From assembly GCA_951406725.2 (NCBI GenBank), contig OX597830.1:79794001-79858000 (forward strand): 64,000 nucleotides of DNA, in the 5' to 3' direction. This DNA is from Octopus vulgaris. Taxonomy: Eukaryota. The translations under genes were made by a program, and so were the position numbers. The notes under the pieces are model-generated. The model made no database searches and was not told the DNA's origin. It saw only the letters and a program-made list of their open reading frames with translations. Position 1 is the stretch's first letter. Every line of letters starts with the position of its first letter. Below are positions 1-64,000 of this stretch, in pieces.

Positions 1-1140
1 TCGTTCCCAGAAAAATATTTTCTCTATAAAATATATAATACTCGTCAATAAATGGCAATAAGCCCCAAGTTTTGTCAGTGAACAAACAGGTCGTGGTTTT
101 CAAGACGAAGAAAATATTTTGACACAAATGAAAATTAAATTAACGGTTTTTGTGTGTTCTTGGATGGCTTACAAATATCTCCCATGCTGCAATTGTTTTT
201 TTTGTTTTAGCACACGATCTCAGATCAAGTCACTTGCTATGCAAATACATCTCCGTAAGTGTAAAGAATATTTTATGTAAAGTGAAAAGAATGTCGAGAT
301 CATTTGTAATAAAAGAAATATTATTATAATCGTTTTCTGAATCACTTTTACTCGCACTAGACTCGCGCACACCATCACTTGTAGACTCTCAGATATCAGC
401 GGAGTCGACAACGAAGAAACGAGACAGAGACTCGTTTTAATGAATCATTCATATTTTTACGAAGGACCGTGGAATATGTTCGCAAAACTATTCGCCAGCA
501 AGAATATATTATATTGGCTTCAAATTTTGGCACAAGGCCAGTTACATCGACTACAGTGTTCAACTCGTGTTTATTTTATCGACCCCGAAAGGATGAAAGG
601 CAAAGCCGACCCCGACGGTCTTTGAACTCAGAACGCAAAGTCGGAAGAAACGTCGCTAAGCATTTTCCCCGGCGCCATAACGATTTTACCTACTTGCCGC
701 GTTTAAATATATAAATTTTGGTTTCAGATTTTCGTACAAGGCCAGCATTTCGATGGAGTAGTTAAGTCTATTACACTGACTCCAGTACTCAACTGGTACT
801 TATTTTAGCGACCCCGAAGGGATGAAAAGCAAAGTCATCCTCGGTGGAATCTGAACTTGGAACATAAAGACAGACGAAATACTGTTAATCATTTTGTCTG
901 GCGTATATTTAAAAGCGGGCGAGCTAACAAAATCATTAGCACGCCGGACGAAATACTTAGCGACATTTCGTTCGTTTTTACGTTCTGAGTTCAAATTTCG
1001 CCAAGGTCGACTTTGCCTTTTATTCCTTTCAGGGTCGATAAAATAGGTACCAGTCATGTACTGAGGTCGATGTATTCGACTTATTCACTCATCATAAATT
1101 ATTGGCCTTGTGCTAAAATTTGAAACGAATATTAGGAATA

Positions 1141-1181
<41 letters not shown>

Positions 1182-2683
1182 ATTATTAAGCGTGTTATTT
1201 TTCCTCATAATTCTGAATTTCTCTTTTCTTTTTTTTTTTCTAAATTTTCCCGACTTGATTGGTGTAAAGAAATTTAATTTTGTCTCCACTAACCAAACAC
1301 ATCTAAAGAAAGTTGAAGAATTGTTAGAACGAAGCCAAAAATTAATATTGCGAATCTCTTAAGAGCAGGAACAGGTTGACAAGAGTTGTTTCCCTTTAAT
1401 TGCTTTCCTACAAAATTATGCAAAGAATAATTTTTAAATATAGTAAGGCCTCGATATACGAGTTAATTTGTACTCGGAAACCGCTCCTAAAACAAAAACT
1501 CGTAAAGCAGAGCAATAATTTTCCATAGTAGCAATGTTATAAACCGTAATTCGTTCCCAGAAAAATATTTTATCTATAAAATATATAATACTCGTCAATA
1601 AATGGCAATAAGCCCCAAGTTTTGTCAGTGAACAAACAGGTCGTGGTTTTCAAGACGAAGAAAATACTTTGACACAAATGAAAATTAAATTAACGGTTTT
1701 TGTGTGTTCTTGGATGGCTTACAAATATCTTCCATGCTGCAATTGTTTTTTTTGTTTTAGCACACGATCTCAGATCAAGTCACTTGCTATGCAAATACAT
1801 CTCCGTAAATGTAAAGAATATTTTATGTAAAGTGAAAAGAATGTCGAGATCATTTGTAATAAAAAAAATATTATTATAATCGTTTTCTGAATCACTTTTA
1901 CTCGCACTTGACTCGCGCACACCATCACTTGTAGACTCTCAGATATCAGCGGAGTCGACAACGAAGAAACGAGCCAGAGACTCGTTTTAATGAATCATTC
2001 ATATTTTTACGAAGGACCGTGGAATATGTTCGCAAAACTATTCGCCAGCAAGAATATATATATTGGCTTCAAATTTTGGCACAAGGCCAGTTACATCGAC
2101 TACAGTGTTCAACTCGTGTTTATTTTATCGACCCCGAAAGGATGAAAGGCAAAGCCGACCCCGACGGTCTTTGAACTCAGAACGCAAAGTCGGAAGAAAC
2201 GTCGCTAAGCATTTTCCTCGGCGCCATAACGATTTTACCTACTTGCCGCGTTTAAATATATAAATTTTGGTTTCAGATTTTCGTACAAGGCCAGCATTTC
2301 GATGGAGTAGTTAAGTCTATTACACTGACTCCAGTACTCAACTGGTACTTATTTTAGCGACCCCGAAGGGATGAAAAGCAAAGTCATCCTCGGTGGAATC
2401 TGAACTTGGAACATAAAGACAGACGAAATACTGTTAATGATTTTATCCGGCGTATATTTAAAGGCGGGCGAGCTAACAAAATCGTTAGCACGCCGGACGA
2501 AATACTTAGCGACATTTCGTTCGTTTTTACGTTCTGAGTTCAAATTTCGCCAAGGTCGACTTTGCCTTTTATTCCTTTCAGGGTCGATAAAATAAGTACC
2601 AGTCATGTACTGAGGTCGATGTATTCGACTTAATCACTCATCATAAATTACTGGCCTTGTGCTAAAATTTGAAACGAATATTA
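1..2683 (+). repeat. ~1.55-kb tandem repeat array (about 1.7 units visible)
   Basis: tcgttcccag recurs at 1 and 1551; ORFs repeat with period 1549-1550; each unit holds three SINE relics. Confidence 0.95.
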
Positions 2684-10551: not shown

Positions 10552-11650
10552 GAATGGCTTTGTGAAATATGTGAGGCAAATGGTTGGAAGCATGAACAAT
10601 CACCAATAATTTGGAGAGAATTGGTTGATCGAGGTGGGAAAGGTGTTTTAATTGGTGGATCGAATGAATTTGAAGAATATGCATACGGCTACTATGGCGT
10701 TACTATTGATTTGGACGGCAAAAGTATGAAAATCATTGCTTATGAAAATCAAACCACTAAAATCGAACTTGATGAAGAAGAAAGAGAAAGGATAAGAAAC
10801 GAAAAATTCATTAAAGTGTGCATAACAAATGCTAGTAGCCCAGTTTGTTTCAGTTTGGTCGACAGTTTACTCTCAGGGAAAATATTTGGTGAAGAGAAAA
10901 TTTCATTGTGTCTTCTGGACTGTGATCCAGCACAGACAGCTGAATTGCAATACATCGCTGAAAATATACAAAACATGGCTTATGGACTTCTGTATTTGAA
11001 TGTCTTTGTTACATCTGACTGTGAAAAAGCTTTTAAAGGAAGTAGAATTATTATCTTTTTGGATGAGGTAGAAAGGAAAGAAGAGGAAAAAGTACATCGG
11101 TGGACGGAAAGAAACGCTGTTCTTTTTGGGTTTTATGGGACAACTCTGTTGAAAGTTGCCAAAAGTGACACGTTGCTATTAGTTGCAGGAAATAATTACA
11201 TGTGTTTAAATATGAGCATATTAAATGAGATTGTTTCTCACATTTCATCCAGAAATATTATTGGTGTTTCAAAAGTAATTGAAAACCAGGCCAAATCTGT
11301 TTTAGCTGAAAAACTGCCAGCAAGCAGCTGCTCCATTGATAACGTTGTTATATTGGGAAGTATCAGCAATGATTATTTGATAGAATTGGACAAGACTTTA
11401 GTTAGAGAGTTTGATTGTGCAGTTGTTGGTCCAGCTACATTCTCTCAGCCATTAAATGATATTTTTCATCAACAAAGCTGGCTCAAGAAGGAGTATGTAA
11501 ATGAAGTCAGTTCAAGAAAACACGTCAATGAAATGAATTTACGGCACCCTACCTACCATCTCATTGGTCATGCCATAACAACAACATTAAATTACTGGTG
11601 GAATGGTTTATCATCAAATGCCATATTCTCTGCGACTCTTATATCCGATG
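10552..11650 (+). pseudogene. MDH1B: Inverted partial copy of MDH1B (large exon only)
   Basis: Near-identical to 20090-21188 with both splice sites intact. The arm lacks the DCPYY exon (region replaced by a SINE at 3061-3352) and ends at 12463, before the 3' exons. Confidence 0.85.
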
Positions 11651-11793
11651 GTAAGCAAAATTCTTCCGTATTTAATCTTAATTCATTTCGGTTGCAGTCA
11701 GCGTTAAATTCTTTAGAAGCGAAAGTTCCAGTTTAGTTCTTTAGAGAGCATTTTTCTTGAACAGCTAGTCATGAAATTTATGACGACAACGAA

Positions 11794-12205: not shown

Positions 12206-12554
12206 AGTCACTGCCTGGAATCAAACCTGGAATCTCGGGGTTAGTAGCCTGCACTCTTAACCACTATGCCATATGCCCATGAGCAACTATGGAGTAAATT
12301 ATAACTCTAATATTCTCCTATCCTTCCTTAATACCGGTTCCCATATGCTGTTCATATCTGCACTCGATCTGCTTAGGAGCTTCTTGTGTCCTAGCATTTG
12401 TGCTGCTTCTTTTGGTTTCCAGATTTTCCAGTACACTTAATTGAAAATGAGTACTAAAAATACTAAGTTTCCATGTGTGTGTGTGTGTGTGTATCTGTGT
12501 GTGTGTGTGTGTGTATGTATTTGCACAAGTGTGTGTGTATTTGTATATGTTCTT

Positions 12555-12767
12555 TCTTTTGTTCTTTTATTTGTTTCAGTTATTTGACTGTGGCCATGCT
12601 GGAGCATCACCTTTAGTGAAACAAATCGACCCCGGGACTTATTCTTTGTAAGTCAAGTCCAGCACTCATTCTATCGGTCTCTTTTGCTGAACTGCTAATT
12701 TACGAGGGTGTAGACACACCAACATTGGTTGTTAAGCGATGGTGGAGAGACAAACACAGACACACAA

Positions 12768-12820
<53 letters not shown>

Positions 12821-12990
12821 AGTACACACATACATACGACAGACTTCTTTCAGTTTCTGTCTACCAAATCCACTCACAAGGTTTTGATTGGCCTGAGGCT
12901 ATAGAAGAAGACACTTGCCCAAGGTGCCATGCAGTGGGACTGAACCTGGAATCATGAGGTTGGGAAGCAAGCTTCTTTCCACACAGCACT
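12555..12990 (-). mobile_element. tRNA/CORE-type SINE
   Basis: Head ggagtgctgtgtgg...ggttcagtccc, CORE-like accttgggcaagtgtctt, internal (CA)n. Confidence 0.82.
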
Positions 12991-13024
<34 letters not shown>

Positions 13025-13267
13025 TCATCATCATCATCGTTTAATGTCCGCCCTCCATGCTGGCATGGGTTGGACGGTTTGACTGAGGACTGGTGAGGCA
13101 GAGGCTGCACCAGACTCCAATCTGATCTGGCAGAGTTTCTACAGCTGGATGCCCTTCCAACTGCAAGTGGGTCAGGGGAATTACTTATTGAACGTCCCTC
13201 GTACCTCATTTTTGGCTGTAAATTTTGGCTTGAAAACTTTAGATTGTATGCTGGAAAATATAATATA

Positions 13268-13868
13268 TATTTCTTTACTACCCACAAGGGGCTAAACATA
13301 GAGGGGACAAACAAAGACAGACAAAGGGATTAAGTCGATTACATCAACCCCAGTGCAAAACTGGTACTTTATTTATCGACCCCGAAAGGATGAAAGGCAA
13401 AGTCGACCTCGGTGGAATTTGAACTCAGAACGTAACGGCAGACGAAATACCTATTTCTTTATTACCCACAAAGGGCTAAACATAGAGGGGACAAACAAAG
13501 ACAGACAAAGGGATTAAGTCGATTACATCAACCCCAGTGCAAAACTGGTACTTTATTTATCGACCCCGAAAGGATGAAAGGCAAAGTCGACCTCGGTGGA
13601 ATTTGAACTCAGAACGTAACGGCAGACGAAATACCTATTTCTTTATTACCCACAAGGGGCTAAACACAGAGAGGACAAACAAAGACAGACAAATGGATTA
13701 AGTCGATTACATCAACCCCAGTGCGAAACTGGTACTTTATTTATCGACCTCGAAAGGATGAAAGGCAAAGTCGACCTCGGTGGAATTTGAACTCAGAACG
13801 TAACGGCAGACGAAATACGGCTACGCATTTCACCCAGCGTGCTAACGTTTCTGCCAGCTTGCCGCCTT
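13268..13868 (-). mobile_element. Tandem trimer of a tRNA-derived Nin/Deu-domain-like SINE (~183-bp unit)
   Basis: B-box gagttcaaattcc plus gactttgcctttcatcctttcggggtcgataaa repeated three times; the A-box head is present only once (13810-13868). Confidence 0.85.
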
Positions 13869-13992
13869 ACCCATTATCTCCAGCACCACAAGAAATAAGA
13901 AGAAAAAAATCATAATCAAAATGAAATATAAAAACTAGAAATATTTTGATCTTTTTCAATAATAAAATATTTTAGTTTAGATTATAAACTAA

Positions 13993-14216
13993 TTATTGTT
14001 CAGTTTCTACTGCTGGTGGATTATTATTATTATCTTCTATCTCGATATCTTCAGTATTTAATGCAGTTTCTGAAATTTCCTCTTCCACCTCTTCTTCAGG
14101 CATTATAGCGTCTAGATTTTCAAGCTCCAAGTCGTGCTCACTGTCTAGACTCCCACGTGGCATTGAGGATGCGGACATTTTCGTACGTCTCCTCTCCAGT
14201 GCTTCTTGTTCTTCAA
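13993..14216 (-). CDS. MDH1B: MDH1B-like gene, probable terminal exon (acidic tail VEEQEALERRRTKM...PPAVETEQ*)
   Basis: Acceptor ttttctaattcag|TT in phase 1 (G|TT = Val), open to TAA at 13993. Non-repetitive, Glu-rich, coding-like sequence. Confidence 0.68.
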
Positions 14217-14260
14217 CTGAATTAGAAAAAAAAATATATATATATAAAAAAGCAATCAAT

Positions 14261-14660
14261 CAGGAGTGGCTGTGTGGTAAGTAGCTTGCTAACCAACCAC
14301 ATGGTTCCGGGTTCAGTCCCACTGCATGGCATCTTGGGCAAGTGTGTTCTACTATAGCCCCGGGCTGACCAATGCCTTGTGAGTGGATTTGGTAGACGGA
14401 AACTGAAAGAAGCCTGTCGTATATATGTATATATATATATGTGTGTGTTTGTGTGTGTGTGTGTTTGTCCCCCTAGCATTGCTTGACAGCCGATGCTGGT
14501 GTGTTTACGTCCCCGTCACTTAGCGGTTCAGCAAAAGGGACCGATGGAATAAGTACTGGGCTAACAAAGAATAAGTCCCGGAGTCGATTTGCTCGACTAA
14601 AGGCAGTGCTCCAGCATGGCCGCAGTCAAATGACTGAAACAAGTAAAAGAGTAAAAGAGT
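14261..14660 (+). mobile_element. Full-length tRNA/CORE-type SINE
   Basis: A-box tggctgtgtggtaag, B-box gggttcagtccc, CORE-like tcttgggcaagtgt, (gtaaaaga)n tail. Confidence 0.85.
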
Positions 14661-15048
14661 AATCAATTAATCTCCTGAATGATTCTCCACCCACCACCTA
14701 CCACCACCACCACCACCACCACATCTACATCTCTGTACTTCACCTCTACCCTCTAACTCCTACTAGCATGCAAACCAAACATGAACATCAAAGGCAATTC
14801 TCTGACATGGCACTTTGACTAGCTCTGTATTTCATTAAAAACAAATGAGGTGCTTTAGTGAAGTAAACACTGAATAGAAAAGTAGAAATATCCAGATATA
14901 AATTGTATGTAGCTATGAAGAGTGTAGGGTTACATGATTGGATTGCTACCTAACACTCTTTTGAATCTCTGGTGCAAAACCAACTGGTAAGATTGGTATT
15001 AATGGATATTATAATAATGTACACTTCAGCTATTGTATAATTCATATT

Positions 15049-15448
15049 CTCTCTTTACTCTTTTACTTGTTTCAGTCATTTGACTGCGGCCATGCTGGAG
15101 CACTGCCCTTAGTTGAGCAAATCAACCCCAGGATTTATTCCTTGTAAGCCTAAAACTTATTCTATCGGTCTCTTTTGCCGAACCGCTAAGATACGGGGGA
15201 CGTAAACACACCATAAGATACGGGGGAACAAACACAGACACACAAACACACACACACACACATATATATACATATACATATATACGACGGGTTTCTTTCA
15301 GTTTCCGTCCACCAAATCCACTCACAAGGCTTTGGTCAGCCCGAGGCTATAGTAGAATACACTTGCCCAAGGTGCCACGCTGTGGGACTGAACCCGGAAC
15401 CATGTGGTTGGTAAGCAAGCTACTTACCACACAGCCACTCCTGCACCT
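15049..15448 (-). mobile_element. Full-length tRNA/CORE-type SINE, inverted relative to 14261-14660
   Basis: Reverse complement of the same family, about 390 bp away in the last MDH1B intron. Confidence 0.85.
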
Positions 15449-16044
15449 ATACATATATATATAAGGTAAAATATTCACCACTTAAAAGAGGGCGTTGCAT
15501 TAGAACACAAATGATGTAATATTTACCAAGGGAGAAAACTCTCATATGCTTATATGGTGCATAGAAGCACATCATAGTTATCGCCAGCAGTAGACAATCA
15601 CTACTACTTCCACTGCTTGGACTACCAGATCACGTGATTTCAGCCTCATTTGGCCATTTCAGTGATGGACACCAAATAGCTGGAAATAGCAGTAACTGCC
15701 ATGCTAGCAATATACATAGAAATACAGAGCCATAACTGGCACTGATGTTGCTAAAGGCCAGTGGGCTTATTAAAAAATAGAGTGACAGAGGTAATATTAA
15801 GAACCAAAGGTAAAATATTCACCACTTAAAAGTGAAATTTGCATTAAAACAATTAAATACTGCAATATTTACCGAGAGACAAGACATCCATATGGTTATA
15901 TTGAAAAAGCCCAATCAGGCCAAAATCATATGATGTGATGGTCTGAGCAGTGGAAGTAGTGGATTGTCTGCCACTGGTGATAGATATGACGTGCCTTTGT
16001 GCACCAGTTAACCATATGAGGGTTTTCTCTCTTGGTAAATATTC

Positions 16045-16690
16045 TTTTCTACTCTAGGCACAAGGCCAGAAATTTTGGGGGAGGGGGCCAGTCGATTAGA
16101 TCGACCGCAGTACGCAACTGGTAGTTAATTTATTAACCCTGAAAGGATAAAAGGTAAAGTCGACCTCAGCAGAATTTGAACTCAGAATGTAAAGACAGAT
16201 GAAATACCTATTTCTTTACTGCCCACAAGGGGATAAACACAGAGAGGACAAGCAAGGACAGACAAATGGATTAAGGTGATTATATCAACCCCAGTGCATA
16301 ACTGGTACTTATTTAATCGACCCCGAAAGGATGAAAGGCAAAGTCGACCTCGGCAGAATTTGAACTCAGAACGTAGTGGCAGACGAAATACTGCTAAGCA
16401 TTTCGCCCAGTGTGCTAACGTTTCTGCCAGCTTGCCGCCTTAGTGTGATACTAATTCTGCCATCTCACTGCTTTCAAGTAATTTAATAACAGTTTCAGAT
16501 GTTGGCACAAGGCCAGCAATTTTGAGGGAGGGGTAAGGTGATTACATCAGCCCCAGTACTCAACTGGTACTTATTTTATTGACCCCAAAAGGATGAAATG
16601 CAAAGTCGACCTTAATGGCATTCGAACTCAGAACTAAGGTCACTAAGCATTTCCCCCAGCTTGGTAACGACTCTGCCAGCTCACCACCTT
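16045..16690 (-). mobile_element. Cluster of Nin/Deu-domain-like SINEs (dimer plus monomer)
   Basis: Three copies of the aaaggatgaaa(g)gcaaagtcgacct...gaactcagaa motif; the dimer junction gaaatacctatttcttt is the same as in the 13.3-kb trimer. Confidence 0.8.
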
Positions 16691-16747
16691 TGTGTAATTT
16701 GATAGCAAAACTAGTAAGCCTCGATTTTTTTTTTTTTTTTGCCTTAC

Positions 16748-16921
16748 CCATTTCTTCCAACAGAAAGCTTAAGACGTCACTTCTTTGACTGGACGGTGTT
16801 CTGGAACTCATAAACGCTGAGTAATCAGTCTCTTCTGATTCTGGTAATGATTCAACAGACACAACTTTTGAGATCAATTTCCATCCTTGACTACAAACAA
16901 GGCTCTATCTTTTACCAAGTT
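16748..16921 (-). CDS. MDH1B: MDH1B-like gene, 174-bp exon with apparent 1-nt deletion (NLVKDRALFVVKDG / LISKVVSVESLPESEE...LLEEM)
   Basis: Acceptor tttttgacag|AAC, donor ATGG|gtaagg. As written it stops at GGA AAT TGA (~16876). One extra base restores the frame of ORF 16560-16877 and the phase needed for the last exon. Confidence 0.72.
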
Positions 16922-17247
16922 CTGTCAAAAATATAACATATTAATTAACGTACACCAGTGACCAAAATGAAGGTTTCATATGTAAAATGATGCATGAAGA
17001 AAGAAGACTTAAAGACACCTACCCAAAGTGCCACGCAGTGGGACTGAACCCGAAACCACATAGCTAGGAAGCAAGCTCCCTAACCACACAGCCATGCCCG
17101 CTGCTTCATAAATACATAGACACACACATACACATCACCACCACCACCACCACCACCACCATTAAAATGATGACAATGATGATGATGATGATGATAATGA
17201 AGATCGTGATTATGATGATCATGATATGGATGTTGAGGATGATGTGC

Positions 17248-17278
<31 letters not shown>

Positions 17279-17329
17279 GTGTGAGTGTGGGTGTGGAGGA
17301 AAAGGATAAACCCTAGTTATCAGTATAGT

Positions 17330-17728
17330 GAATGAGGTTATACAGGAAGATGTCATACCGAATGACTGATTAAACAGCATCGAAGACAACTGCTACAAAA
17401 GTAAAGGGTCTGCCACAGATTGAAGTAACTACAGAGGCATCAAACAGCTGGACTAGGTCGAGAAAGCTATGGAAAGAGTTATAGCTCAATTAATTGGAGA
17501 AAGAAAGAGAGAGAGTAGATGAGATGTGGTTTGATTTTGTGCCGGGGACGAAAGTGCTATGAATGAGGCTAGTGTGCAGGAGAAGCACTAAGCTAAAAGT
17601 AAGCTGTTGTACTAAGCTGTCTTCAGGATTTCTCACCTTGTGGTCTTGTGGTTTGCCCAAGGTGCCATGCAGTGGGACTGAACCTGGAATCATGAGATTG
17701 GGAAGCAAGCTTCTTTCCACACAGCACT

Positions 17729-17769
<41 letters not shown>

Positions 17770-18868: not shown

Positions 18869-18920
18869 ATGTTTAGAGATTAAAAACCAAAATAGAGAAG
18901 AAAAAATCCAAGATACTTAC

Positions 18921-43394: not shown

Positions 43395-43453
<59 letters not shown>
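43282..43453. repeat. (TATG)n/(TA)n microsatellite; mirror 49983-50135 differs in composition
   Basis: Direct reading. Confidence 0.95.
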
Positions 43454-43456
<3 letters not shown>

Positions 43457-43479
43457 ATTGTAATATGTGACAATTATTT

Positions 43480-45400: not shown

Positions 45401-45474
45401 TACACCAATAATAAAAATAAAAATACATCGCATCAAAGTCTTGAACGATAGTAGACAAATCGCACATAGAACTG

Positions 45475-47970: not shown

Positions 47971-50488
47971 TGTTCTATGTGCGATTTGTATACTATCGTT
48001 TAAGACTTTGATGCGATGTAATTTTATTTTTATTATTGGTGTATCTCTTTGCTATCTTATTGGACTATTCCTGCTCGATACGTTGGGCAAGATCTTTCCT
48101 GACGTATACTTCGCCATTTACAAAGATGATGCCCTCGCCTTAACTGCTAATACCAAAGGACCAGCACAGGATCGGTTTAGGAAGGACGTTATCTTAGCAT
48201 GACTTAGCATGACTACAGACTTAGCATGACTACAGACACTTAGCATGACTACAGACACCAGTCTGTCAATTTCCTAGGTGTATCCTTAGATCTAAATAAG
48301 AACATTTATAAGCCTTATAGGAAGCCCAACGATAGACTTAGATATGTTAATGTGGATTCTTGCCATCCGCCCCGTACTGTTTAAAAATTTAGTTAAAAAC
48401 TTTAGCAAAAGATTTTCTAGCCTCTCCTCCGATAGGGACATTTTTAATAGCGTTTGAAAAGATAAAAGATATAAAAGATAGTGGTTTTGGCGAGGAAATA
48501 ACCTAAACACCTGCCACCAGTCCAATAATAAAGAGGAAACATAGAAATAGGAAAACTATCTGGTTCACACACCCCTACTCACCCGAGGTGAGCTTCAATA
48601 TAGGCAAGAATTTCTTAGCACTGATAGACATGTTCCAGTCAACCATACTTACAGAAAGCTCTTCAATAGACATAACTTAAAAATCAGTTTCAGCTCAACT
48701 ACCAATTTTAAAAATATAATCGCACACAACCCACAAAAATCACAATACAAAACCAGCTGTTCATGCAGGGATAAAAATTTGTGCCCGCTAAATGGAGCTT
48801 GCATGACCGAGACCATCATTTATGAAGCCACCGTAGAATCTATATACACTAAGGACACGGTTTCGACGAAGAAATACATAGGCCTTACAGAGGGTAGTTT
48901 CAAGGCCAGGTTCGATAATCACACCTTGAGCTTCAGGCACTGGGATAAAAGGAAAACGACCAAATTATCCAGTCATATATGGTCATTAAAGAATAAAGGT
49001 GTCAGTTACAACATCCATTAGAAGATCTTAGCCAAGTTTAAACCCTACACCAACGGCAGTGGAAAGTGTGGTCTTTGTGATATGGAAAGATGGCTCATCT
49101 GGAAAAGCAGCTTAGACCCCGCTACATGTCTGAATTCAAGAATTGAACTTTTCGGATCATGCCCATACGTGGCTCAATATTTGTTACGTTTTTGGTCCTG
49201 CCGAGATTACAGATAGAACTTGCTTTCTATATTGTGTTCACGTACAAGCTTTTTATCTCTTTATAATTTTTACTAATATTTCTTATATATTTTTATATAT
49301 ATTTATAGATCTTTTATACGTATTTTTTACATATCTATAGAGATAGTTTTATAGGTTTATTGCTCATATATATTTTACTCATAATTTTTCCTTATTCTAC
49401 CTTCCACTCTGCATTTTACCTGTGCGTATATAGACGTGTATATGGAATCGTTTGTGCGTGCGTATAGATGTGTGCGTGTGTGTTGATATGTGCATATATA
49501 GATGTGTGTGTGTGCGTGCATGCGAGTATGTGCGTATATAGACGCGTGTGTGTGCGTGCATACGGGTGTGTGCGTATATAGATGTGTGTACGAACCTAGT
49601 TGGTGCGCATGTGTGTATGGCGAATGGTGTGGGTGAGAATGTGTACGTTTCAAGTGAGGGTGAATGAGTGTATACTTATAGGTGCATGTGCGTGGGTGTG
49701 CGGACGCGCATGTGTAGGTACGGACATGCGCGCTTACGCGAATACTATGAACATTTTATCCCCTTACTTTTACTCCCTCCCCTCACTTAGCGGTCATTCA
49801 AATAGCTCTTTTGTCTTAATAACGGTCAATCACACAGTAATTTCCCTTTGTTTAACGGTCATTTTCATAGCATTTCTTCTGATGGGCGGATAACTGAAGA
49901 GATGGCGGCGTGGCTTTCCACCCCGACATCCGAAACTCGGATTTTTATCACGGCTAGCAAATAATTGTCACATATTACAATTACATATATATATATAGAC
50001 ACATACATGCATACATGCATACATACATGCATACATACATACATACATGCATACATACATGCATACATACATACATACATACATACATACATACATACAT
50101 ACATACATACATACATACATACATACATACATACATCATAGCTGCACCCTCGTTACACGAGAAAAGCCATTTCCAAAAAGACTTACTGAAATGACTCATT
50201 GTTGATGCCATGTGATGCGCTTATATGACTGTTAAGCCCAACCAAACTTTTACACATTTTATTACATACTGCACAACTGTGCTGGCTGGCAGCAGAAACA
50301 GGTGCCACCATATTCACTCTCTTAACGTGTCTTTCCAGACCTCCAGATGAGAGGCACTCTCTTCCACATTTTACACATGTTCCGTTGTGAATTTTAATAG
50401 CCACATCACTGTTTATCATGGGTCGATTCCTGTAAGATTTTTGATGGCTCACCAGGCCTGCACGAGTCAAACACCTCTTCCCAACAAC

Positions 50489-50549
<61 letters not shown>

Positions 50550-52333
50550 CAACACTCTCTCACTTTCCACTGGTTCCCTCCTTCTAAACTCCCTTCTAAT
50601 TATCTCATACTTCATTCTCTCCCCCTCGAACCTTGAACAACTATCATGCACTATCTTCTTCCATCCATCGCGGTCTTGTGTCTCCCTCTCTCAATCACCA
50701 GCTGTAATTCCTGTCTGTATTAGAGCATTCTTAAGGCAATCCTTAAATCTTAGTTTAGGCTTATGTGTTGGTCTCCTGCCGTCTTCCAGCTCACCACACA
50801 ATAGCTTCTTGGGTAGTCGCTCATCACTCATCCTTACCAAATGTCTCCCGACTCCAACCTCAAAGTTTTTTACAAAATCTTTGAATCTGTACTTCTACTG
50901 CCACTCCTCTCAAGCAGCGCCACATTACTCATGGCCATTTTTCCAGTTTATCCTCAAACCTTTTCTCAGACAGTATTCATGGTATCATTCCAATGACTTA
51001 CAAGCCTACATTAAACAACCCATGCCTCACCTCACTCCCCTATAACAAAGATGGGAGGTCGCACCTGTTATATACCTTAACTTTAATTTATATTATGTTG
51101 TTTCCACAGACGACTATCTAGTCTACCAAAAGCACTACTAGCCCTGCTGATTCTGTATGAAATGTTATCATGAAGACCAGCAGCGCTCAAGGTACTTCCT
51201 AAATAAATAAGTCTAGGTGCAGCCTCCAACCTTTGACTATTCACAGTTATAAAAGGTTCCACATACATTTTGTGGGAGTGGGCTGGTACTTCATAACAGT
51301 TTTTTTTTAGATTGATCGTTAGACCAAATGCTGCACATGCTGCAGAAATCGCATTCACAATATGCTGCATACCTTTCTGGGAATGTTCCAACAGGTCACA
51401 ATCATCTTTCCTTTTGGCACAGAGTCTTTTGAGATTGAACAGCTTTCCTCTTGTCCTATATCTTATATAGATGATAAGCTTGCCTTCTATCTATCACTTA
51501 ACAGTGATTATACGCAGCGTTACTCATGATGACAAAGTTGTCATTTTAGGTGATTTTAATGCACGCGTTGGTGCAGATTTGTAGACCTGGGGTGTCTTAG
51601 GAAAGCATAGCGTTGGGAGTTCCAACAATAATTGTTTATTACTGTTATATATGTGCGTAGAGATGGATTTGTGTATCATGAATACAATGTTTCAACGAAA
51701 GAGTAAGTGTAAAACAACATGGATGCACCCTGGTTCTAAGAAATGGTACCTTGTAGATTACATCCTCTCCAGGAAACGAGATACTAGGGGCTTTGCTATA
51801 CTACGATTGATGTGTGGTGCAGAGTGCTTGATTGATCATAAGCTTTTGCGTGCCAAGGTGAATTTTGCTCTCAAGCCTAAGGTTAGAGCAAATAATGACA
51901 TGTTACCTAATCGGATTGATGTCAATAAACTTAAGACTCCATCAGTACGCAATAAGTTTGTGATGGGAGTTGTGATGGAATTTGTCCTGTGGTGGAAGCT
52001 GGAAGTCATTCAAAGAAAGAGTGTACAAGATTTGTAGTAACATTCTTGGGTTTGTTGCAAAAAAGACACCGAGATTGGTTTGACTATAATGATGAAGAAG
52101 TTAGTTTTATCTTAGAGGAGAAGCAAAAGGCATTTAACATGTTGCAAAATATTGACCTGTCAGCAATCAGGACAGTGGCTACACACTTCAAGGCAGTAAA
52201 AGCAACAGTGCAGACGAAGCTGAGGATGATGCAGGAAAATTGGTGGAGTGATATATGCAAGGAAATCCAAGAAGTTTCAAATGCTAACAATTCCAAACTT
52301 TTTTACTCTCTCTCTCACTCTCTCTCTCCTTTC

Positions 52334-52364
<31 letters not shown>

Positions 52365-55300
52365 CGAAAAAAGTTTCTGAACCAGTGTCATCAAAGGTTG
52401 CGCCGCTTCGGAGCGAGGATGGTACAGAATTATTAACAAATCCTAAAGATATTGTTGGGAGATGGAAAGAACATTTTGACGATTTGCTCAATAGACCTAC
52501 TAAAGTTGACCTCTCTTTCTTGATAATATATCTGGGAGATCAATAAAACATCTTATAGCAGAAGTTCCAAACCTGGTTGAAATAAAAGCAGCTATCAGGA
52601 AATTGAACTATAGAAATGCTCATGGCATGGATGGACTAGGTACAGAGATATATAAATATGGTGGTGATCATCACTGTACAATGTTGACGGATGTGATTCA
52701 GACGGTTTGGCATAGTGAAGAGGTTCCTCCGGATTGGCGTGAAGCAACTATGGAAACGATGTCTGTGATAATTATCGCGGTATCTGTTAGCTGTTGCTGG
52801 AAAGGTCCTTTGTAGAGTAATGCTCGACAGATTGTTTCTGCACATTGCTGATGAGGTTCTACCAGAATCGCAATGTGAGTTTAGGGATAGAAGGAGTACT
52901 ATGGATATGATATTTTTAGCAAGAGAAGTACATCGAACAGGGTATGGACGTATACCAGACTTTCAATGATCTAACAAAAGCGTTTGATTCTATCAATGGA
53001 ATTGTACTTTGGGAGATCCTGAAAAGCTATGATGCCCTGAAAAATTTGTAAGAATGCTTAGACAATTTCATGACAAGACAGAAGTGAGAGCTAATGTTGG
53101 AGGTACCTTATCAGATCCAATTTCTCTATAAAATGGTGTAAAACAAGGTAATATTCCTGCTCCTGCATTGTTTGCTATGTATTTTGCAATAGTCTTTCAA
53201 ATAGCTTTTGAAGATTGCACTGAAGGGATCTATATAAGATATAGTTGAAGCATATGCAGTAATGAGTGTTGCATAGCGACCTTTTCTTAATGGAGGTGTT
53301 GAAGACATCAAACGATCTGAATTATCACATGGTAGTTCCTCAAGGTTTGAAACCAAAGTGGTTTTGATAGTAAATCCCACTCTTGATTCTGTCTTATAGG
53401 TCTCCTCTCTACTGCTCCAAAATAAATGATACACAGCAGATTTCTCTACCAAATCCCACTTTCCATGAATTTTTGTTTCGGCTAACTCTACAACATTCAT
53501 GTCGCTGTAACTCTTTTTCAACAAGCGCGGATCTCCTCTCCGGACGAGATTTCAGACAATCATTGTCTAACATTCGAACATTCCAACATCCTATATTCAA
53601 AGGCTTGCATCTTAACCTGAATTTACTCACAGTTGCAAGATGACGACCAGATCCAGGTTGTCGTGCCCTGGGACACCTGCCGGGCCAAACCACAAAACAA
53701 AATGTTCCAGAGCCCTTTTTGTCATTTGCTTCAGTATCAATATGAACTTTCATTGTTTAGTTGTGCCTTTTTAAGTTTTGGTGGTCAACCATGTACATAC
53801 AAGATGTTCATTTCCTTTTCCTCTCCAGCAATACCTGTGCCTGACACATTTTAAAACGAGGAAGAGTGTTGCACAGCAACTATTCCCACTCTCTAAACTA
53901 CAATGCATGATCCAACAAGAATAATAAGTCGACATCATTGGGTGCATTTGCAGTCGCATATTTTATATCCGAGTGTTCTTCTCCGAGTCTTTGCTCAGCC
54001 AAAGGCTAACTACAAGACAGCAGTGAAGTATTTAGATTCAGAGTTACTTTCTCCGAGATAGACTACCTTCGCCACGACTTGCGTAAGCAGAGGAATCCTA
54101 TCCAACCCTCATCTATTTATTTATAAAAGACTAAGATAAGAAAAATAAAATTAAGAATAAAATTGACATACAATATATACAATGTAAAACACAATATACA
54201 ATATGCACACAAACAGCTTGAAATACAATATATACAGTACATACAGATAGGCACACAGGTTTTAAATGCAATATTTACAATACATACACACAAACTTAAA
54301 CACTCCACACGCACATCCACAAACATACGTTGTTGAATGGCCGTTGACTACGCTGTAGTTCCTCCGCCCTTTGACATGTCTTATTTTCTGTCCCGCAGGG
54401 CATCCACCGAATACCCACCTCACCAAGCAAGCCATTGTGGGGTTACCGGTTTAGTCGCCGACAACCCGACCATATAACAGGTTGTACTACCGAAAGGTGT
54501 TTGATAGCATTCTCCACACATGGATCCTAGAAACACTAGCCATGAACGAGGTGGCACTAATAATCATAAAATGTATAACACATTCCATAAATAAATGGCA
54601 GACCTTGCTACAGCTCCAAACAAAAGAGGGATTCATAAAAACCAAAGCCATCCCCATTAGAAGAGGAATATTCCAGGGAGACACGCTCTCTCCACTCCTT
54701 ATATGTTTCACACTGACACCTTTATCTGACAGAACTGAAAGCGGATACGACTGTTACGGCAAAGCAATCAGCCGCCTCTTATGTATGGATGACCTAAAAC
54801 TGTAGACTACAAATGATAAACACCTGGAATTATTACTACAGACAGTACATGGATTTACCAAACAAATAAATATGAAATTTGGCTTAGAAAAATGTGCCAA
54901 AGCAACCTTGAAAAGATGGGATCTACTTAAGAGTAGCAGCATCACACTAGATAAAGCTAGAGTTCAAATCCAGATGCAGTATTCCATTGCGAATTACAGA
55001 AGAATTTATGTGCCATATGAAAATAAGTGATTCCAGAGGTAATTGACGAGGTTACAATGGGCCAGAGGCATGTCTATGATTGTGTTGATCGCAGTCCTAG
55101 AGAAGTTTGACAACAACCAGATAAGCTGTTTGGCGGTCTGACTGTTTTGTTTTCTGGAGAATGGAAGCAGATCTTGCGCTTGGTGCAAAGAGGTTACAGA
55201 GTCCAGATTGTTCATGCCATATTAAAACAGTCATACATTTGGAACCATGTCCAAAGCTTTCAGTTGTCTGTCAATATGAGAGTCCGAAATTCTTGCGGTG

Positions 55301-58300
55301 TTGACACTACTTTCGCACCCTATCTTGACCAGCTGGGGAATAGAACATTTTCTCTCAATAAAGAAATTTGTGAATACAAAAAATCTATAGCCCCACCGCA
55401 TTTGATTGACTCTACAAGGCTACAGGATCTTTGTGAAGTGGTCTTCAGGGCTATTGAGAATAAATATAGAGAGGGTCTATGGATAAGCAGCAGAGCCATC
55501 ATTATTCCTACAAACAAGGCTGCTGAAAAAGTAATAAAGTTGTCATGTCAAAACTTCTACAAGGATATAGTAGAACTTATCAAAGCTGTGATACTTTATA
55601 CGAAAACGAGACTGAGTTCCCGCCGGAACTGATCAATGATCTCAACTCATCAGGATTTCCACCATACATTTTGGTTTTGAAGAAGCACTCTTCAATTATG
55701 CTGCTCAGAAACCTTGATCCAGCAGGAGGTCACTGTAACGGAACAAGATATATGGTCGTGAATTTGCACAACCACCTTATTGAAGCAGATGTGGCCGATG
55801 GGACACATGCTGGAATCCGAATAATGATACCACGAATTCCACTGACCACCACTGAAGACTATCCGTTCTCATTTTCCAGGAAGCAGTTTCCTCTGAAACT
55901 GGCTTTGAAAGGACAAATCCCAAGGTCAGACTTAAGAAACAGTTGGAATTTACCCGCCAACACCTATGTTCATCCATGGCCAGTGCTATGTTGCCAACAG
56001 CACGATCGGTTCTGGGAACAATGAGCATATATTGGCTTTGGACTCAAAGTATAAGGGTATGAATGGAATATACACTGACAAAGTTGTCTTTTAGGAAATT
56101 CTATAAGAAAATTATAGTAGGTTTCACATTTTACTTTCAAACTACAAACAGGAGTGTAGATATGTAAGTAACTAAATCGACCGACTGGAGGGCGGTGGTT
56201 CAGCTAGTTTCTATAATTTTGAGATTTTATCACTTTTCATTCTGAACTCGACAAAGACAAGCTATCTGTCGAAATATCGTTCAACCAATAAAATATCGAC
56301 TGCAGTCGCATCGCGCTCTTCCTCTTGACTAGGAAGAAGAAGAAGAAGAAGAAGAAGAAGAAGAAGAAGAAGAAGAAGAAGAAGAAGAAGAAGAAGAAGA
56401 AGAAGAAGAAGAAGAAGAAGAAGAAGAAGAAGAAGAAGAAGAAGAAGAAGAAGAAGAAGAAGAAGAAGAAGAAGAAGAAGAAGAAGAAGAAGAAGAAGAA
56501 GAAGATGTCAGCTCCGCGCTGAATAACAATATGGGCGTGTTACACCGGACTCTCCATACAAATACAAATCTAATCTAATAACACCAGTGTAATAGGAAAA
56601 AGGAACCCGCGGAAGACTTGCAGGAAACGGCATTATAGCGAAAATAATCACAAAAAGCGAAATTTTACTGCCATAGGAAAACAGTTTCTCCCATGTACGA
56701 TGTCTGAGTGAAAGATGTGCGAAAGACACGTGCGAAATCAACGTCGAAAACTTTACAAATTATAAAATATAAGTGGAAGAAAACAGTAAATTCATAAATT
56801 GATTTAATTATGCATACACTCGAATGTCTATGCATTCGTATATTAATACCCATAGGACTACACATACACCCAATGTTTACACAACTACGTGAAATTTACA
56901 GGACACACATACAAGTATATGACAGCACGTGTCGCAAACGAAACAAAACTATAAGAATACAATTTTCTTCGAACTAACACAGAGTGAATAATTCATAGGT
57001 TTTAAATAACTGCAACGAGACTATACCCGGAGATAAATCTGTCAACAACAACGAAAACATACAGACGAATACAGATCTGTTTGCCTTTAAAAGCGATGTT
57101 ACGAGCAATGCTTTCATTCAGAGAACATGTTGTCTGAAAATGTTAACGCAAAACAAACAGATCCTACCTTAATATTAACGTCCAAACGCATCATGCCTCA
57201 AAGATAACAAAGCAATATACACACCGGATCGTTCGTCACCAGAGCCAACATGGGCAGCGCACGCCAGTGAGGGACCAGACTGGGTGTGAAAAATCAGATA
57301 CTGGTTCAAATCTTTCCATGACGCAGGAGCTCGAAGTGCCCCACAACCGGAATATTCCATCAAATGGCTATCCAAGCTCGTCATCAAATAACCAAAAGAA
57401 AAAGAATGAAAAATGGTCGTTGGTAGATAAATCTAATACTGAACAAACCTACCTAAACTGAAGAGAGGAGCATCTTGAAGTAAGATCTTATATAGTAACA
57501 ACCTTGCCAACGTCAGAAGAAACGAAGATGCAGGTAAAGAAGATACTACTGTGGAAATAATTACAGACTGACCCAGGTCTGATGAAACTGCGGTTATGAT
57601 AACAAGAGTCAATGTAACTTATAAGCAAAGTGAAATACTCTCTGAACCAAGCATAAACACCAAGGCAGATGAAAATCAAATAGATGAAGAAAGTAAAACA
57701 GAAATTGACCCAACTGAACTGGAGGATCTAAGCAATGAAATCCTGATAGAATGGCTGAAAATTAAAGAAACTGGTATGAATGAGCGAGACACTCTCCCGC
57801 AAATTCACAACTCTAACCAAAACCTGAAAGTAATTGGTAAAATCCGTCTTGCACTTAAAGATATATTCTCAGCTGAAGATGTTGACATTACACGGGCATT
57901 GAAGTCCCCGAGTATCAGCAGCTTGCTATTCTTTAGGAACTGACCGTAGCACTTTGGTGAGGTTCTGATAGAACAATTCTCTCTGCTCCAGAGTGTAGGT
58001 CGCAGTTGGAGCTTAAGCACTGATGAGTGTCAGTGCATCTTGCCTTGGAGAGGAGTTCTCATCACCATCAGGCGATCGCTGATTCCTCTTGAGAGGGATT
58101 CCATGTTCTTGACGAGGGCGGTGCGAATAGAAAAGCCAACTCTTACTTCCCTGCGTTCATCCGCTGCCTTCCTTGACCAAAAGAAAGTGTATCTAGCCCC
58201 AGCCTCGGTGATCTCCCCCGTGACGGCGAAGCGTGTCTCGCTGAGGGCAGCAACATCAATGCTGTATCTCTGCAGTTCACAACCCACAAGTGCTGTTCGA

Positions 58301-61300
58301 CGTTCTGGTCTGTCACAGTTTTGGTTGTCCATGTGTGTCCTGATGCTCCAGGTTCCAACACATAAAGTACTTTTCGGGCGGGAAGATTTTGGATTCATCT
58401 TTCGTATTTCTTTCATGTTTCGACCGAGTGGTATATGACCAGTTAGCGGCGGTATGCTGGCAGGATGAGATGAGGCAAGCTTTCTTTAGGTCACCTTTTC
58501 TAGACCCTTCCCCCTAAGGGGGCAAGCAGTGATATCCCTGAAGAGGGCTGCTCCGTCGTCAGAGTGGCTGCCGAACTATGCCCTTGCCCCAGTAGGTTGC
58601 AGAACGACAACCCGAGTGTAGGTACATGGCTAGCAGCTCCCAGCGCTATCCTGCACCTGCCACAACCACCACGCGCCCATCGCCTCAGGACTTGGAAGAA
58701 GAAGAAGTAGAGGGGGTGGAGTCACTGAATCCTGGGCAAGGGAACTGTGGAGGCCTTGAGTTGCGCAAGCCCACCCCACCCCCTCTCGGTCCAGCTGATC
58801 TAGCCAGGAGGGACACAGGACGATACATCCTAGCCACGACTGGACTGCAGGCGCTGCTGGAGATGATGGACTTCATTACCTAACCGCCTTAGGGGCGCCA
58901 CTTCGGCTTTGGATACGGTTTACTCCCTAGCCTTTGATTAACCAACAAAACCTACCCGCAAGGCAGCAGGAGACTCTTGGAGAGCGGGAACGTCTCACTA
59001 CCCGTACAGGACCAGAAGGATCTGCCCACTGCCTAAACGATATATACAATTTAAAAAAGAAAGAACTCAGTATATACAATACATACACACAGGGAGTCCA
59101 AAATTCAACACACAAACACCCCACAAACACACATAGTTGAATGGCCGTTGACTACGTTGTAGTTCCTCCACTCTTTTACAGGTCTTACTTTTTTGTCCCG
59201 TAGGGTGTTCAACAAGCACCGACCTTACCAAGCAAGCCTGGTGGAGTTGGCAGTTTAGTCGCCGACGACCCGACCATGGAACGTGTGGTACTGGGCTACA
59301 TGGTACCTGTAGCACTCGAGAGCCATGCTCTTCCGCGCCCTATCAAAGTCTGATGCTGGTGTCACTATTCGCTACAGATGTGACGGCCGATTCTTTGACC
59401 TCAGACGTCTGAAGGCAAAAACCAAAGTCCTGGGCGCCGTAGTGAGAGACTTCCTGTTTGCAGACGATTGTGCGCTTGCAGCATTGAATGAACCAGATCT
59501 GCTGCAAGAACTTGACACTTGTCTCGCAGAAGCAGCAAAAGCCTTCGGACTGACCTTTAGCCTGCGAAACACTGAAATGATGCTTCAGCCTGCACCTGGC
59601 ATGACACCTCCTGAGTCTCAGATTAGATTGAGGGCACAACCCTGAACAACGTGGAGAGATTTACATACCTGGGAAGCTGTCTGTCCTCAAGCTGCAGCAT
59701 GGACAAACATGTCTCCATGAGGCTTGCAAAAGCAGGAGCTTCGTTTGGCAGACTTTGGACATGTGTGTGGGCCGAACGAAGCGTTAGACTTTCCACCAAG
59801 CTGGCAGTCTATACGGCAGTCGTCATCACCTCTCTGCTCTACGACTGTGGGACATGGATGCTGTATAGGAGGCAAATGCGAGTACTTGACTAGTTCCATC
59901 TCTGCTGCTTGCGACGAATCATGTGAATTTCCTGGGAGGACAGAGTCTCCAACACTGAGGTGCTTTGCAGAGCCTAAATGCCCGGTATCGAAGCCCTCAT
60001 CATGAAGGCCCAACTCTGGTGGGTCGGAAATGTAGTCCGAATGGACGACGCGCATCTACCAAAGATGATCTTCTTCTCTGAGCTGGCTTCTGGAGTAAGA
60101 AACCCTGGAAGGCCACTGGGGCGATACAAGGACAGTCTGAAAACTTCCCTTGAGGCCTGCGGCATTTCAGCTCGTGGCTAAGAATCGCTTGCCTCTGACC
60201 GCAGCACCTGGCGTCCAGCTGTTCAAAAGGGTGTTAGGCTGTTCGAGGAAAAGCGCCTCAAGAGCCTGGACCAGAAGCGACAAGCCCGAAAAGAGAGGAT
60301 CTCCAATCCTACTTCTGCTGTTACGTGCCCAACATGTGGCCACGTCTGCGCGTCCGCCTTTGGGTTCCGCTCTCACCTCTGGTGTCACTGATGTCACTGT
60401 CAAACCCCAACAGACTTCCATCATATCATGAGGGGCTGTATGAATGTATGTTGGTCTGTGTGCATATTGTGTATGGGTGGGGGGTGCTATGTGTGCATAT
60501 TATATGAGATTATATGCTCTGTTTGTTGGTGTGTATGTATTTTAGGTGTGTATGTTTGTTATGTGTATTGGTATGCGTGTACAGTTTGTGTGTGTGTATG
60601 CTATGTGAGTGTGTATGCTCTGTTTGTTGGTTAATATGTATATTTTGTGGAGGTGTTTATGGTATGTGTGTTGCTGTGTTTCTATATTGTTTGCGTGTGT
60701 GTGTGTATTATGTGGGAGTGTGTGCTATGTGAGTTGGTCTGTGTGTATATTATTTGGGGTGGGGTGCTATGTGAGTTGGTGTGTGTATATATTTTGAAGG
60801 GGTGTATGCTATGTGTGTTGGTGCGTGTGTACATTTTGTGGGAAGTATGTGTTTGTGGGGGGAATTACAACCGTGTTTCGTTGTCTGCTACCACAACAGC
60901 TCCTTTATAGGATCCAGTTAGCTCAAGACATCATCAGGAGGAACCACGTCCGGTTTCGGCCCCTACTCTCTACTGCTTTGACGTGGAGGGGCCCGGCCCC
61001 TTTCGGATGTGTCTCCTTTCTTTTGTTTCCTGGCCTCTTCGATGTATCGTCAGCGAGTGCCAGCCGGTCACTGACTAACTTGTCAAATTTTCCCCTTTAA
61101 ATACCTGCCGCCAGTCTCCAGCTTGCAGCCCCAGCAAGTTGTCGCGTGATACTGTCTCACCTTAACTGACTAGTGAAGGAGCGTAGTTTTAGCCCTCGCA
61201 TTCTCTAAACGACCGTCACCTGTCATTCAGCGAAGCTGATTCAGTGTCAGCTTGTCTCGCCTAGTGATGTTATTTCCTGCCGGCATGTTATGACTTTCAA

Positions 61301-64000
61301 GCCATTTTCGGTCTTCCCGCTTCAGCCATAGATAGAAGCTGGCTTTTTCCACCGCCTACTGTACTCTTCTTATTAGTTTTCTATTACACTGACTCCAGTA
61401 CTCAACTGGTACTTATTTTAGCGACTCCGAAGGGATGAAAAGCAAAGTCGACCCCGGTGGAATTTGAACTCGGAACATAAAGACAGACGAAATACTGTTA
61501 ATCATTTTGTCTGGCGTATATTTAAAAGCGGGCGAGCTAACAAAATCGTTAGCACGCCGGACGAAATGCTTAGCGACATTTCGTTCGTTTTTACGTTCTG
61601 AGTTCAAATTTCGCCAAGGTCGACTTTGCCTTTTATTCCTTTCAGGGTCGATAAAATAAGTACCAGTCACGTACTGAGGTCGATATATTCGACTTATTCA
61701 CTCATCATAAATTATTGGCCTTGTGCTAAAATTTGAAACGAATATTAAGAATATATTATTATTATTATTAAGCGTGTTATTTTTCCTCATAATTCTTAAT
61801 TTCTCTTTTTTTTTTTTTTTCTTAATTTTCCCGACTTGATTAGTGTAAAGAAATTTAATTTTGTCTCCACTAACCAAACACATCTAAAGAAAGTTGAAGA
61901 ATTGTTAGAACGAAGCCAAAAATTAATATTGCGAATCTCTTAAGAGCAGGAACAGGTTGACAAGAATTGTTTCCCTTTAATTGCTTTTCCTACAAAATTA
62001 TGCAAAAAATAATTTTTAAATATAGTAAGGCCTCCATATACGAGTTAATTTGTACTCGGAAACCGCTCCTAAAACAAAAACTCGTAAAGCAGAGCAATAA
62101 TTTTCCATAGTAGCAATGTTATAAACCGTAATTCGTTCCCAGAAAAATATTTTCTCTATAAAATATATAATACTCGTCAATAAATGGCAATAAGCACCAA
62201 GTTTTGTCAGTGAACAAACAGGTCGTGGTTTTCAAGACGAAGAAAATATTTTGACACAAATGAAAATTAAATTAACGGTTTTTGTGTGTTCTTGGATGGC
62301 TTACAAATATCTTCCATGCTGCAATTGTTTTTTTTGTTTTAGCACACGATCTCAGATCAAGTCACTTGCTATGCAAATACATCTCCGTAAATGTAAAGAA
62401 TATTTTATGTAAAGTGAAAAGAATGTCAAGATCATTTCTAATAAAAAAAATATTATTATAATCGTTTTCTGAATCACTTTTACTCGCACTTGACTCGCGC
62501 ACACCATCACTTGTAGACTCTCAGATATCAGCGGAGTCGACAACGAAGAAACGAGCCAGAGACTCGCTTTAATGAATCATTCATAATTTTACGAAGGACC
62601 GTGGAATATGTTCGCAAAACTATTCGCCAGCAAGAATATATATATTGGCTTCAAATTTTGGCACAAGGCCAGTTACATCGACTACAGTGTTCAACTCGTG
62701 TTTATTTTATCGACCCCGAAAGGATGAAAGGCAAAGCCGACCACGACGGTCTTTGAACTCAGAACGCAAAGTCTGAAGAAACGTCGCTAAGCATTTTCCC
62801 CGGCGCCATAACGATTTTACCTACTTGCCGCCTTTAAATATATAAATTTTGGTTTCAGATTTTTCGCACAAGGCCAGCATTTCGATGGAGTAGTTAAGTC
62901 TATTACACTGACTCCAGTACTCAACTGGTACTTATTTTAGCGACCCCGAAGGGATGAAAAGCAAAGTCATCCTCGGTGGAATTTGAACTCGGAACATAAA
63001 GACAGACGAAATACTGTTAATCATTTTGTCTGGCGTATATTTAAATGCGGGCGAGCTAACAAAATCGTTTGCACGCCGGACGAAATACTTAGCGGCATTT
63101 CGTTCGTTTTTACGTTCTGAGTTCAAATTTCGCCAAGGTCGACTTTGCCTTTTATTCCTTTCAGGGTCGATAAAATAGGTACCAGTCATGTACTGAGGTC
63201 GATGTATTCGACTTATTCACTCATCATAAATAATTGGCCTTGTGCTAAATTTTGAAACGAATATTAGGAATATATTATTATTATTATCAAGCGTGTTATT
63301 TTCCCTCATAATTCTTAATTTCTCTTTTTTTTTTTTTTTTTCTAAATTTTCCCGACTTGATTGGTGTAAAGAAATTTAATTTTGTCTCCACTAACCAAAC
63401 ACATCTAAAGAAAGTTGAAGAATTGTTAGAACGAAGCCAAAAATTAATATTGCGAATCTCTTATGAGCAGGAACAGGTTGACAAGAGTTGTTTCCCTTTA
63501 ATTGCTTTTCCTACAAAATTAAGCACAGAATAATTTTTAAATATAGTAAGGCCTCGATATACGAGTTAATTTGTACTTGGAAACCGCTCCTAAAACAAAA
63601 GCTCGTAAAGCAGAGCAATAATTTTCCATAGTAGCAATGTTATAAACCGTAATTCGTTCCCAGAAAAATATTTTCTCTATAAAATATATAATACTCGTCA
63701 ATAAATGGCAATAAGCCCCAAGTTTCGTCAGTGAACAAACAGGTCGTGGTTTTCAAGACGAAGAAAATATTTTGACACTAATGAAAATTAAATTAACGGT
63801 TTTTGTGTGTTCTTGGATGGCTTACAAATATCTTCCAAGCTGCAATTGTTTTTTTTGTTTTAGCACACGATCTCAGATCAAGTCACTTGCTATGCAAATA
63901 CATCTCCGTAAATGTAAAGAATATTTTATGTAAAGTGAAAAGAATGTCAAGATCATTTGTAATAAAAGAAATATTATTATAATCGTTTTCTGAATCACTT
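46705..64000 (-). repeat. Palindrome 2, right arm (runs off the window end)
   Basis: Reverse complement of the left arm from the apex ...agatggt|gtgtgcctat|accatct... outward, with scattered substitutions and microsatellite length changes. Confidence 0.96.
61381..64000 (+). repeat. ~1.52-kb tandem repeat array, mirror copy in palindrome 2
   Basis: Marker ORF at 61413 and 62932; same orientation as 1-2683. Confidence 0.95.

Follow-up and report, generated by a model that had tools for sequence, protein, structure and literature searches.

An inverted multi-copy MDH1B amplicon on a probable autosome of Octopus vulgaris, with a putative giant mirror at the scaffold end

Toward its end, C17, a contig of 79,964,032 bp in the Octopus vulgaris assembly, carries an inverted gene amplicon that is real and probably autosomal, of a kind already known and new for octopus, and a giant mirror that is putative. 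The window analyzed here, a stretch of 64,000 nucleotides (C17:79,794,001-79,858,000), was studied together with its flanks. The reading that we prefer, at slightly better than even confidence, is that MDH1B is present on C17 in multiple inverted copies, that its exon 3 was likely gene-converted and that the mirror centered at 46,700 likely is a second haplotype or paralog joined on by a fold-back in the assembly. Among the papers listed in the literature searched, with most subscription journals outside the search, we found no MDH1B amplicon in octopus and no cephalopod ampliconic palindrome, and both the MDH1B expansion and its homogenized exon 3 seem to be undescribed.

An earlier note on this DNA had claimed an alternating order of arrays, MDH1B copies and TE blocks around an apex, and self-BLAST with exon mapping confirmed this order in the assembly, with E-values of 0 that exclude chance for the layout. 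This confirmation covers assembly content; the presence of the apex in the animal is a separate matter. The features of the window are as follows.

1..2683, plus strand: 1.52-kb tandem array, 2 units, starting about 0.8 kb before the window (self-BLAST)
10552..11652, plus strand: MDH1B fragment of exon 3 only, frame open, without exon 2 and exons 4-6
12464..19478, no strand: 7-kb spacer of the inner inversion, whose arms end at 12,463 and 19,479
13993..14216, minus strand: MDH1B exon 6, with acidic tail and stop
16748..16921, minus strand: MDH1B exon 5
18921..19051, minus strand: MDH1B exon 4 (at least 4 copies genome-wide)
20088..21188, minus strand: MDH1B exon 3, 1,101 bp, 2 differences from the plus-strand fragment, at least 7 copies genome-wide
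24887..24999, minus strand: MDH1B exon 2, with in-frame ATG and exon 1 absent upstream
26373..32059, minus strand: 1.52-kb tandem array, 4 units
32059..46690, no strand: TE block B2, one of six copies on C17, with decayed LINEs that bear RT and a piece with a PIF1 domain
46691..46708, no strand: apex (TGGT, 10-nt loop, ACCA), inside a LINE
46705..61380, no strand: TE block B3, which mirrors B2 with 0.9% substitutions
61380..64000, plus strand: 1.52-kb array, mirror of 26,373-32,059, running on to 67,089 and followed by MDH1B exons 2-6 (plus strand)

One inverted self-BLAST alignment covers 29,447-64,000 (97.9% including gaps) and has its center near 46,700. The inner inverted pair consists of 10,362-11,998 and 19,749-21,378, and its older flanks are 9,228-10,385 and 3,352-4,242. 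Consistent with the earlier note, the window begins and ends in the same array in the same orientation, 1-1,897 matching 62,133-64,000 on the same strand. With the flanks included, the left chain reads flank F, TE block B1, two array units, the exon-3 fragment (plus strand), the 7-kb spacer, MDH1B exons 6-2 (minus strand), four array units, B2 and the apex. After the apex come B3, four array units, MDH1B exons 2-6 (plus strand), an exon-3 fragment (minus strand), two array units, B4 and inverted F, so that the numbers of array units are mirrored exactly about the apex (2+4 and 4+2).

A plus-strand MDH1B copy had been predicted past position 64000, and exons 2-6 indeed lie at window 68,461-79,488, starting 4.5 kb beyond the window, with the inverted exon-3 fragment at 81,779-82,880 after them. 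The further rungs suggested as possible upstream failed to appear: the 390 kb before position 1 hold no other exon-3 copy, and the remaining copies are 10-12 Mb away. Tandem arrays with 7.3-kb and 6.5-kb units occupy window -90,000 to -21,000, and their copy numbers differ among the two outer arms and the copy at 69.2 Mb.

The two 399-aa frames at 10,537-11,736 (plus strand) and 20,004-21,203 (minus strand) are MDH1B: O. vulgaris models match them at 99-100%, O. bimaculoides at 89% and other molluscs at 35-41%. Pfam gave weak LDH/MDH matches on exon 3, and the identification rests instead on the comparison with protein models. Exon 3 is unusually long, its 1,101 bp making up two thirds of the coding sequence. 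The plus-strand copy in the window is exon 3 alone, while the minus-strand copy has exons 2-6, of which exon 5 is one base short in an A run compared with the three other copies, likely a consensus error. The arms contain no intact genes: the arm copies are without exon 1, the sole exon 1 found being at 67.20 Mb, and the window's copies are without the first 8 residues. An in-frame ATG lies in exon 2 of O. vulgaris and O. sinensis, at a position that encodes Lys in O. bimaculoides, and copies without exon 1 could possibly make a shortened protein from it. The exon-3 stretch is contained in 20 of the 24 public runs listed, with no RNA run listed among those that contain it. Exon 1 at 67.20 Mb is missing from public O. 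vulgaris models, which have other first exons. The PIF1-domain (Helitron-like) piece of the TE block lies at 37,392-38,341, with its mirror at 55,276-55,934, and P0001, P0006 and P0077, three models from public sets, have it joined to MDH1B exon 3; these models are probably prediction artefacts. Within MDH1B intron 2, 23,206-23,810 forms a 600-bp AT-rich imperfect self-palindrome (90%).

Genome searches, whose counts are lower bounds, found 7 copies of exon 3, 4 of exon 4 and 1 of exon 1 on C17 and none on other contigs; MDH1B is multi-copy, as the earlier note had supposed, and more copies were found in the flanks. The single exon 1 of the genome is at C17:67,201,838-67,201,861, and at 67.18-67.20 Mb, just past a gap, a TE block, an array, a fragment and the inner junction adjoin this sole exon-1 gene. 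At 69.31-69.33 Mb, F, a TE block and one array unit are followed by exons 2-6. The 1.52-kb array unit contains pieces of MDH1B intron 1, matching intron 1 of the 67.2-Mb gene. The inner junction is seen again at 67.18 Mb on a separate contig. The six TE-block copies differ pairwise by 0.56-1.12%, too many copies for two alleles of one locus, and their site patterns are mutually incompatible, which fits exchange among copies or a mosaic consensus. In a second octopus, taken to be O. sinensis, a full MDH1B model and a different exon-3-only model (2 residues different) lie on one 59.4-Mb contig, and partial models lie on a 35.7-kb scaffold. Public models of O. bimaculoides give one MDH1B gene with two isoforms, from an assembly that may have collapsed copies; the expansion is likely younger than the split from this species.

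Taken together, the copy numbers of exons 3, 4 and 1, the repeated inner junction, the six TE-block copies and the O. sinensis models argue that the amplicon is real. If MDH1B were instead single-copy, and every extra copy a haplotig or misassembly, the gaps at which the other two loci start (67,157,684 and 69,122,222) and the scaffold end at which the window locus stops would be expected. We regard this as very improbable given the six mutually distinct TE-block copies, the divergence of about 6% between intron-2 versions, the three different gene structures and the multiple O. sinensis models. In a separate part of the contig, C17:67,248,371-67,261,821, repeats of 2.3-5.1 kb, both inverted and direct and very young (99.5-99.9%), have the shape of an inverted triplication.

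The arms of the inner inversion diverge by 5.8-6.2% in intron 2 and by 2/1,101 bp (0.18%) in exon 3, where a single synonymous difference was found among 226 sites against 13 expected from the 5.8% divergence of the flanks (P=3e-5). Arm-to-arm homogenization had been raised through the analogy with mammalian palindromes, and the likeness of exon 3 between the inner arms bears it out, with the qualification that the donor could be any paralog. Gene conversion likely homogenized exon 3. Selective constraint would be a poor explanation, because the fragment is without its neighboring exons and the protein is just 89% conserved with O. bimaculoides; short-read polishing could homogenize somewhat, yet would not bring 6% down to 0.2%. 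The inner inversion looks real, because it is repeated at 67.18 Mb, because the sister species has several models and because exon 3 differs by 0.18% against flanks at about 6%. The claim that the two inversions differ in age fared unevenly: intron 2 agrees with it (about 6% in the inner arms against about 1.0% in the outer), whereas exon 3 of the inner arms (0.18%) and their TE block, which differs by 1.1%, do not.

The earlier note, in which mammalian MDH1B is described as enriched in testis and ciliated tissue, had raised the idea of a palindrome like those of the X and Y. Amnionless, a Z-linked gene according to bioRxiv 2024.12.09.627507, maps to C16 in our genome search, and C17 is for this reason inferred to be an autosome; the sex-chromosome idea was not borne out. 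A Z-linked testis-gene palindrome of the mammalian type is the least probable reading that we considered. The homogenized exon 3 would suit it, as would the structural role of mouse MDH1B, which pairs with MDH1 as a strut of ciliary radial spoke 3 and whose small N-terminal domain touches CFAP91, C10ORF53 and AK9 (bioRxiv 2025.05.19.654877); both the position of the window on C17 and the arm copies without exon 1 speak against it. Compared with the mammalian X/Y ampliconic palindromes, as described in PMC8327919 and bioRxiv 800185, the octopus locus has arms of more than 10 kb, about 99% identity, a cilia/flagella gene and signs of conversion, and differs in being autosomal, in its outer spacer of 10 nt, in the arm copies without exon 1 and in outer arms that are putative.

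The outer mirror runs from window -116,398 to 169,717 (286 kb), and the scaffold ends 315 bp later. In the assembly, its arms measure 163 and 123 kb, unequal mainly through the lengths of tandem arrays, and the inner arms about 27 kb including the TE block, all above 10 kb. Outer arm identity, to be set against the more than 99% expected of a mammalian-type sex-chromosome palindrome, is about 99.0% by substitutions and about 98% with gaps, figures that consensus errors blur. In the 54 tiles, out of 62, whose alignments exceed 1.5 kb, divergence averages 1.0% (range 0.2-3.7%), a mean inflated by tandem-array and microsatellite tiles; the heterozygosity given for O. vulgaris in bioRxiv 2023.05.16.540928 is 1.22%. 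The arms differ by 115 transitions and 57 transversions (0.9% substitutions), and 67 of 130 differences are common to other copies. With transition-rich differences and shared variants, the two arms were not copied from a single molecule. At 15 sites, B2 and B3 group apart from the rest, a grouping that allelism predicts equally.

At the apex, the two halves of a 4-bp inverted repeat flank a 10-nt loop, and the perfect stem is 190 bp long; this junction was found at a single place in the genome. The parental LINE sequence is retained in four other copies and has TGGT and ACCA ten bases apart, and fold-back priming on this repeat would give the junction of the window. The signature of a fold-back-type event, as the earlier note had supposed, is hence present at the apex as assembled, on a pre-existing short interrupted inverted repeat. 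Arm differences begin 190 bp from the apex. Of the 13 that lie within 2 kb of it, 9 are alleles also found in other copies, so that two versions that already existed are joined there. In the same 2 kb, B2 and B3 have 11 private indels of 1-2 bp against 2 in the other four copies (P=2e-4), a sign of poor consensus at the turn. Noisy reads through a real hairpin could likewise raise errors there. Among contigs from 4 public runs, in which contig depth is not equal to copy number, none of the 32 pieces listed (of about 6,970) at 46,600-46,734 crosses the junction, the LINE being very high-copy, and the loose ends of the contigs listed carry parental LINE sequence on both sides. The integrity of LINE reading frames was tried as an error test and did not discriminate (longest frames 427, 161, 143, 144, 184 and 318 aa), as the non-apex copies are broken too.

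A second fold-back (C17:69,122,322-69,148,524), at a contig start, turns near 69,135,487, where there is a short inverted repeat rich in TA. An assembly gap terminates its arm of 13 kb, which bears 53 private indels in 9 kb against 2-7 in homologues, while 28 inner-private sites indicate that its arms, too, are not one molecule. This error-rich fold-back also has a short inverted repeat, and we therefore did not take the one at the window's apex to prove that the apex arose biologically. In the terminal 20 kb of the 39 other scaffold ends of C1-C20, where a deeper apex would be invisible, no spacerless fold-back reaches the end (0/39), and spaced inverted repeats lie near the end at two, the starts of C7 and C15. 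A telomere tract occurs in just 2 of these 39 termini, over the same 20 kb per end; telomeres being absent at nearly all ends, the missing telomere of C17 was dropped as evidence.

We judge, as an estimate that was not computed, that the outer mirror is an assembly fold-back with somewhat more than even probability, and we give a real chromosome palindrome an appreciable chance, below even. The mirror is suspect because its arm reaches the scaffold end, because arm divergence is close to heterozygosity, because indels are in excess at the apex and because a second, error-rich fold-back exists. Several observations stand against an assembly fold-back: the apex coincides exactly with a short inverted repeat that was already there, which is also the case for the real template-switch junctions of PMC10766183; the outer arms are not copies of one molecule and differ in array lengths; the 39 other scaffold ends are free of spacerless terminal fold-backs within 20 kb; and short-loop palindromes persist elsewhere in the assembly, such as one at the C3 end whose perfect stem of 691 bp encloses a 25-nt loop.

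It is possible, at somewhat less than even probability, that the whole chain is real and arose by successive germline template-switch or fold-back events (ODIRA or BFB type) at short inverted repeats. This would include, near an autosome end, a palindrome of 286 kb whose loop is 10 nt long and whose arms later conversion made mosaic. The parental sequence kept in four other copies around the priming repeat, the junctions that alternate in orientation, the exact mirroring of array units, the 15 sites uniting B2 and B3, and terminal fold-backs at two ends within the amplicon against none at the 39 ends elsewhere all favor it, and so does the use of 2-14-bp repeats at yeast inverted-amplicon junctions (PMC10766183). 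It fits less well with a right arm that stops at the scaffold end, with the nearness of arm divergence to heterozygosity, with the excess of indel errors and with differences that start 190 bp off the apex and are mostly common to other copies. A divergence of about 1% and a length difference of 40 kb would also imply a long-lived 10-nt loop, and small spacers are the least stable in the primate X palindromes of PMC8327919. More specifically, a real 286-kb palindrome may, at less than even probability, cap the autosome as a rung of a germline fold-back chain, in which a radial-spoke gene was amplified in the O. vulgaris/O. sinensis lineage with converted, exon-1-less copies; were it so, the locus would match mammalian ampliconic palindromes on a cephalopod autosome, and its priming site could still be read.

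Under the preferred reading, a real amplicon with a mirror joined on by the assembly, an ancestral single MDH1B gene would have been partly duplicated. The derived copies would have lost exon 1 and been placed behind a common TE block, with a piece of intron 1 amplified in them into the 1.52-kb array. One copy, cut off after exon 3, may then have been inverted beside one that has exons 2-6, from which the inner palindrome and its 7-kb spacer would have resulted, and recombination among 99%-identical copies would have produced mosaics. Finally, a read may have self-primed at the 4-bp inverted repeat, so that the assembler turned and followed the other chromosome copy back to the contig end.

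Long-read fold-back artefacts, which make up about 0.55-0.6% of ONT genomic reads and are often without adapter sequence according to PMC12870357, resemble the outer mirror in having little or no sequence between the arms, in being contig-terminal and in their raised indel rate. They differ from it in that the octopus arms are 123-163 kb long with real-looking variants, for which a single read is insufficient and a switch of haplotype or paralog is needed. The ODIRA and DUP-TRP/INV-DUP junctions treated in PMC10766183 likewise lie on short interrupted inverted repeats that were already present, and alternate in orientation, whereas those of yeast are mostly 40-80 bp and the octopus apex is 18 bp, an asymmetric spacer of 7 kb lies at the inner junction, and the octopus copies are old and mosaic. 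Mouse chr12 SD12A1, a palindromic duplication, is also autosomal, with inversion from one arm to the other and tandem repetition inside each arm; according to PMC13688818 it is of megabase scale, with 93% identity, a 530-kb gap and no conversion found, in contrast to the 99% identity and converted exon of octopus.

Should the apex be real, octopus would have a giant palindrome of a natural and rare sort, almost spacerless and with a visible priming site, on which the stability of palindromes and conversion off the sex chromosomes could be tested directly. If it is false, about 123 kb at the C17 end and two MDH1B copies are false duplicates. Palindromes of 1-2 kb were also observed at the C6 start and the C18 end.
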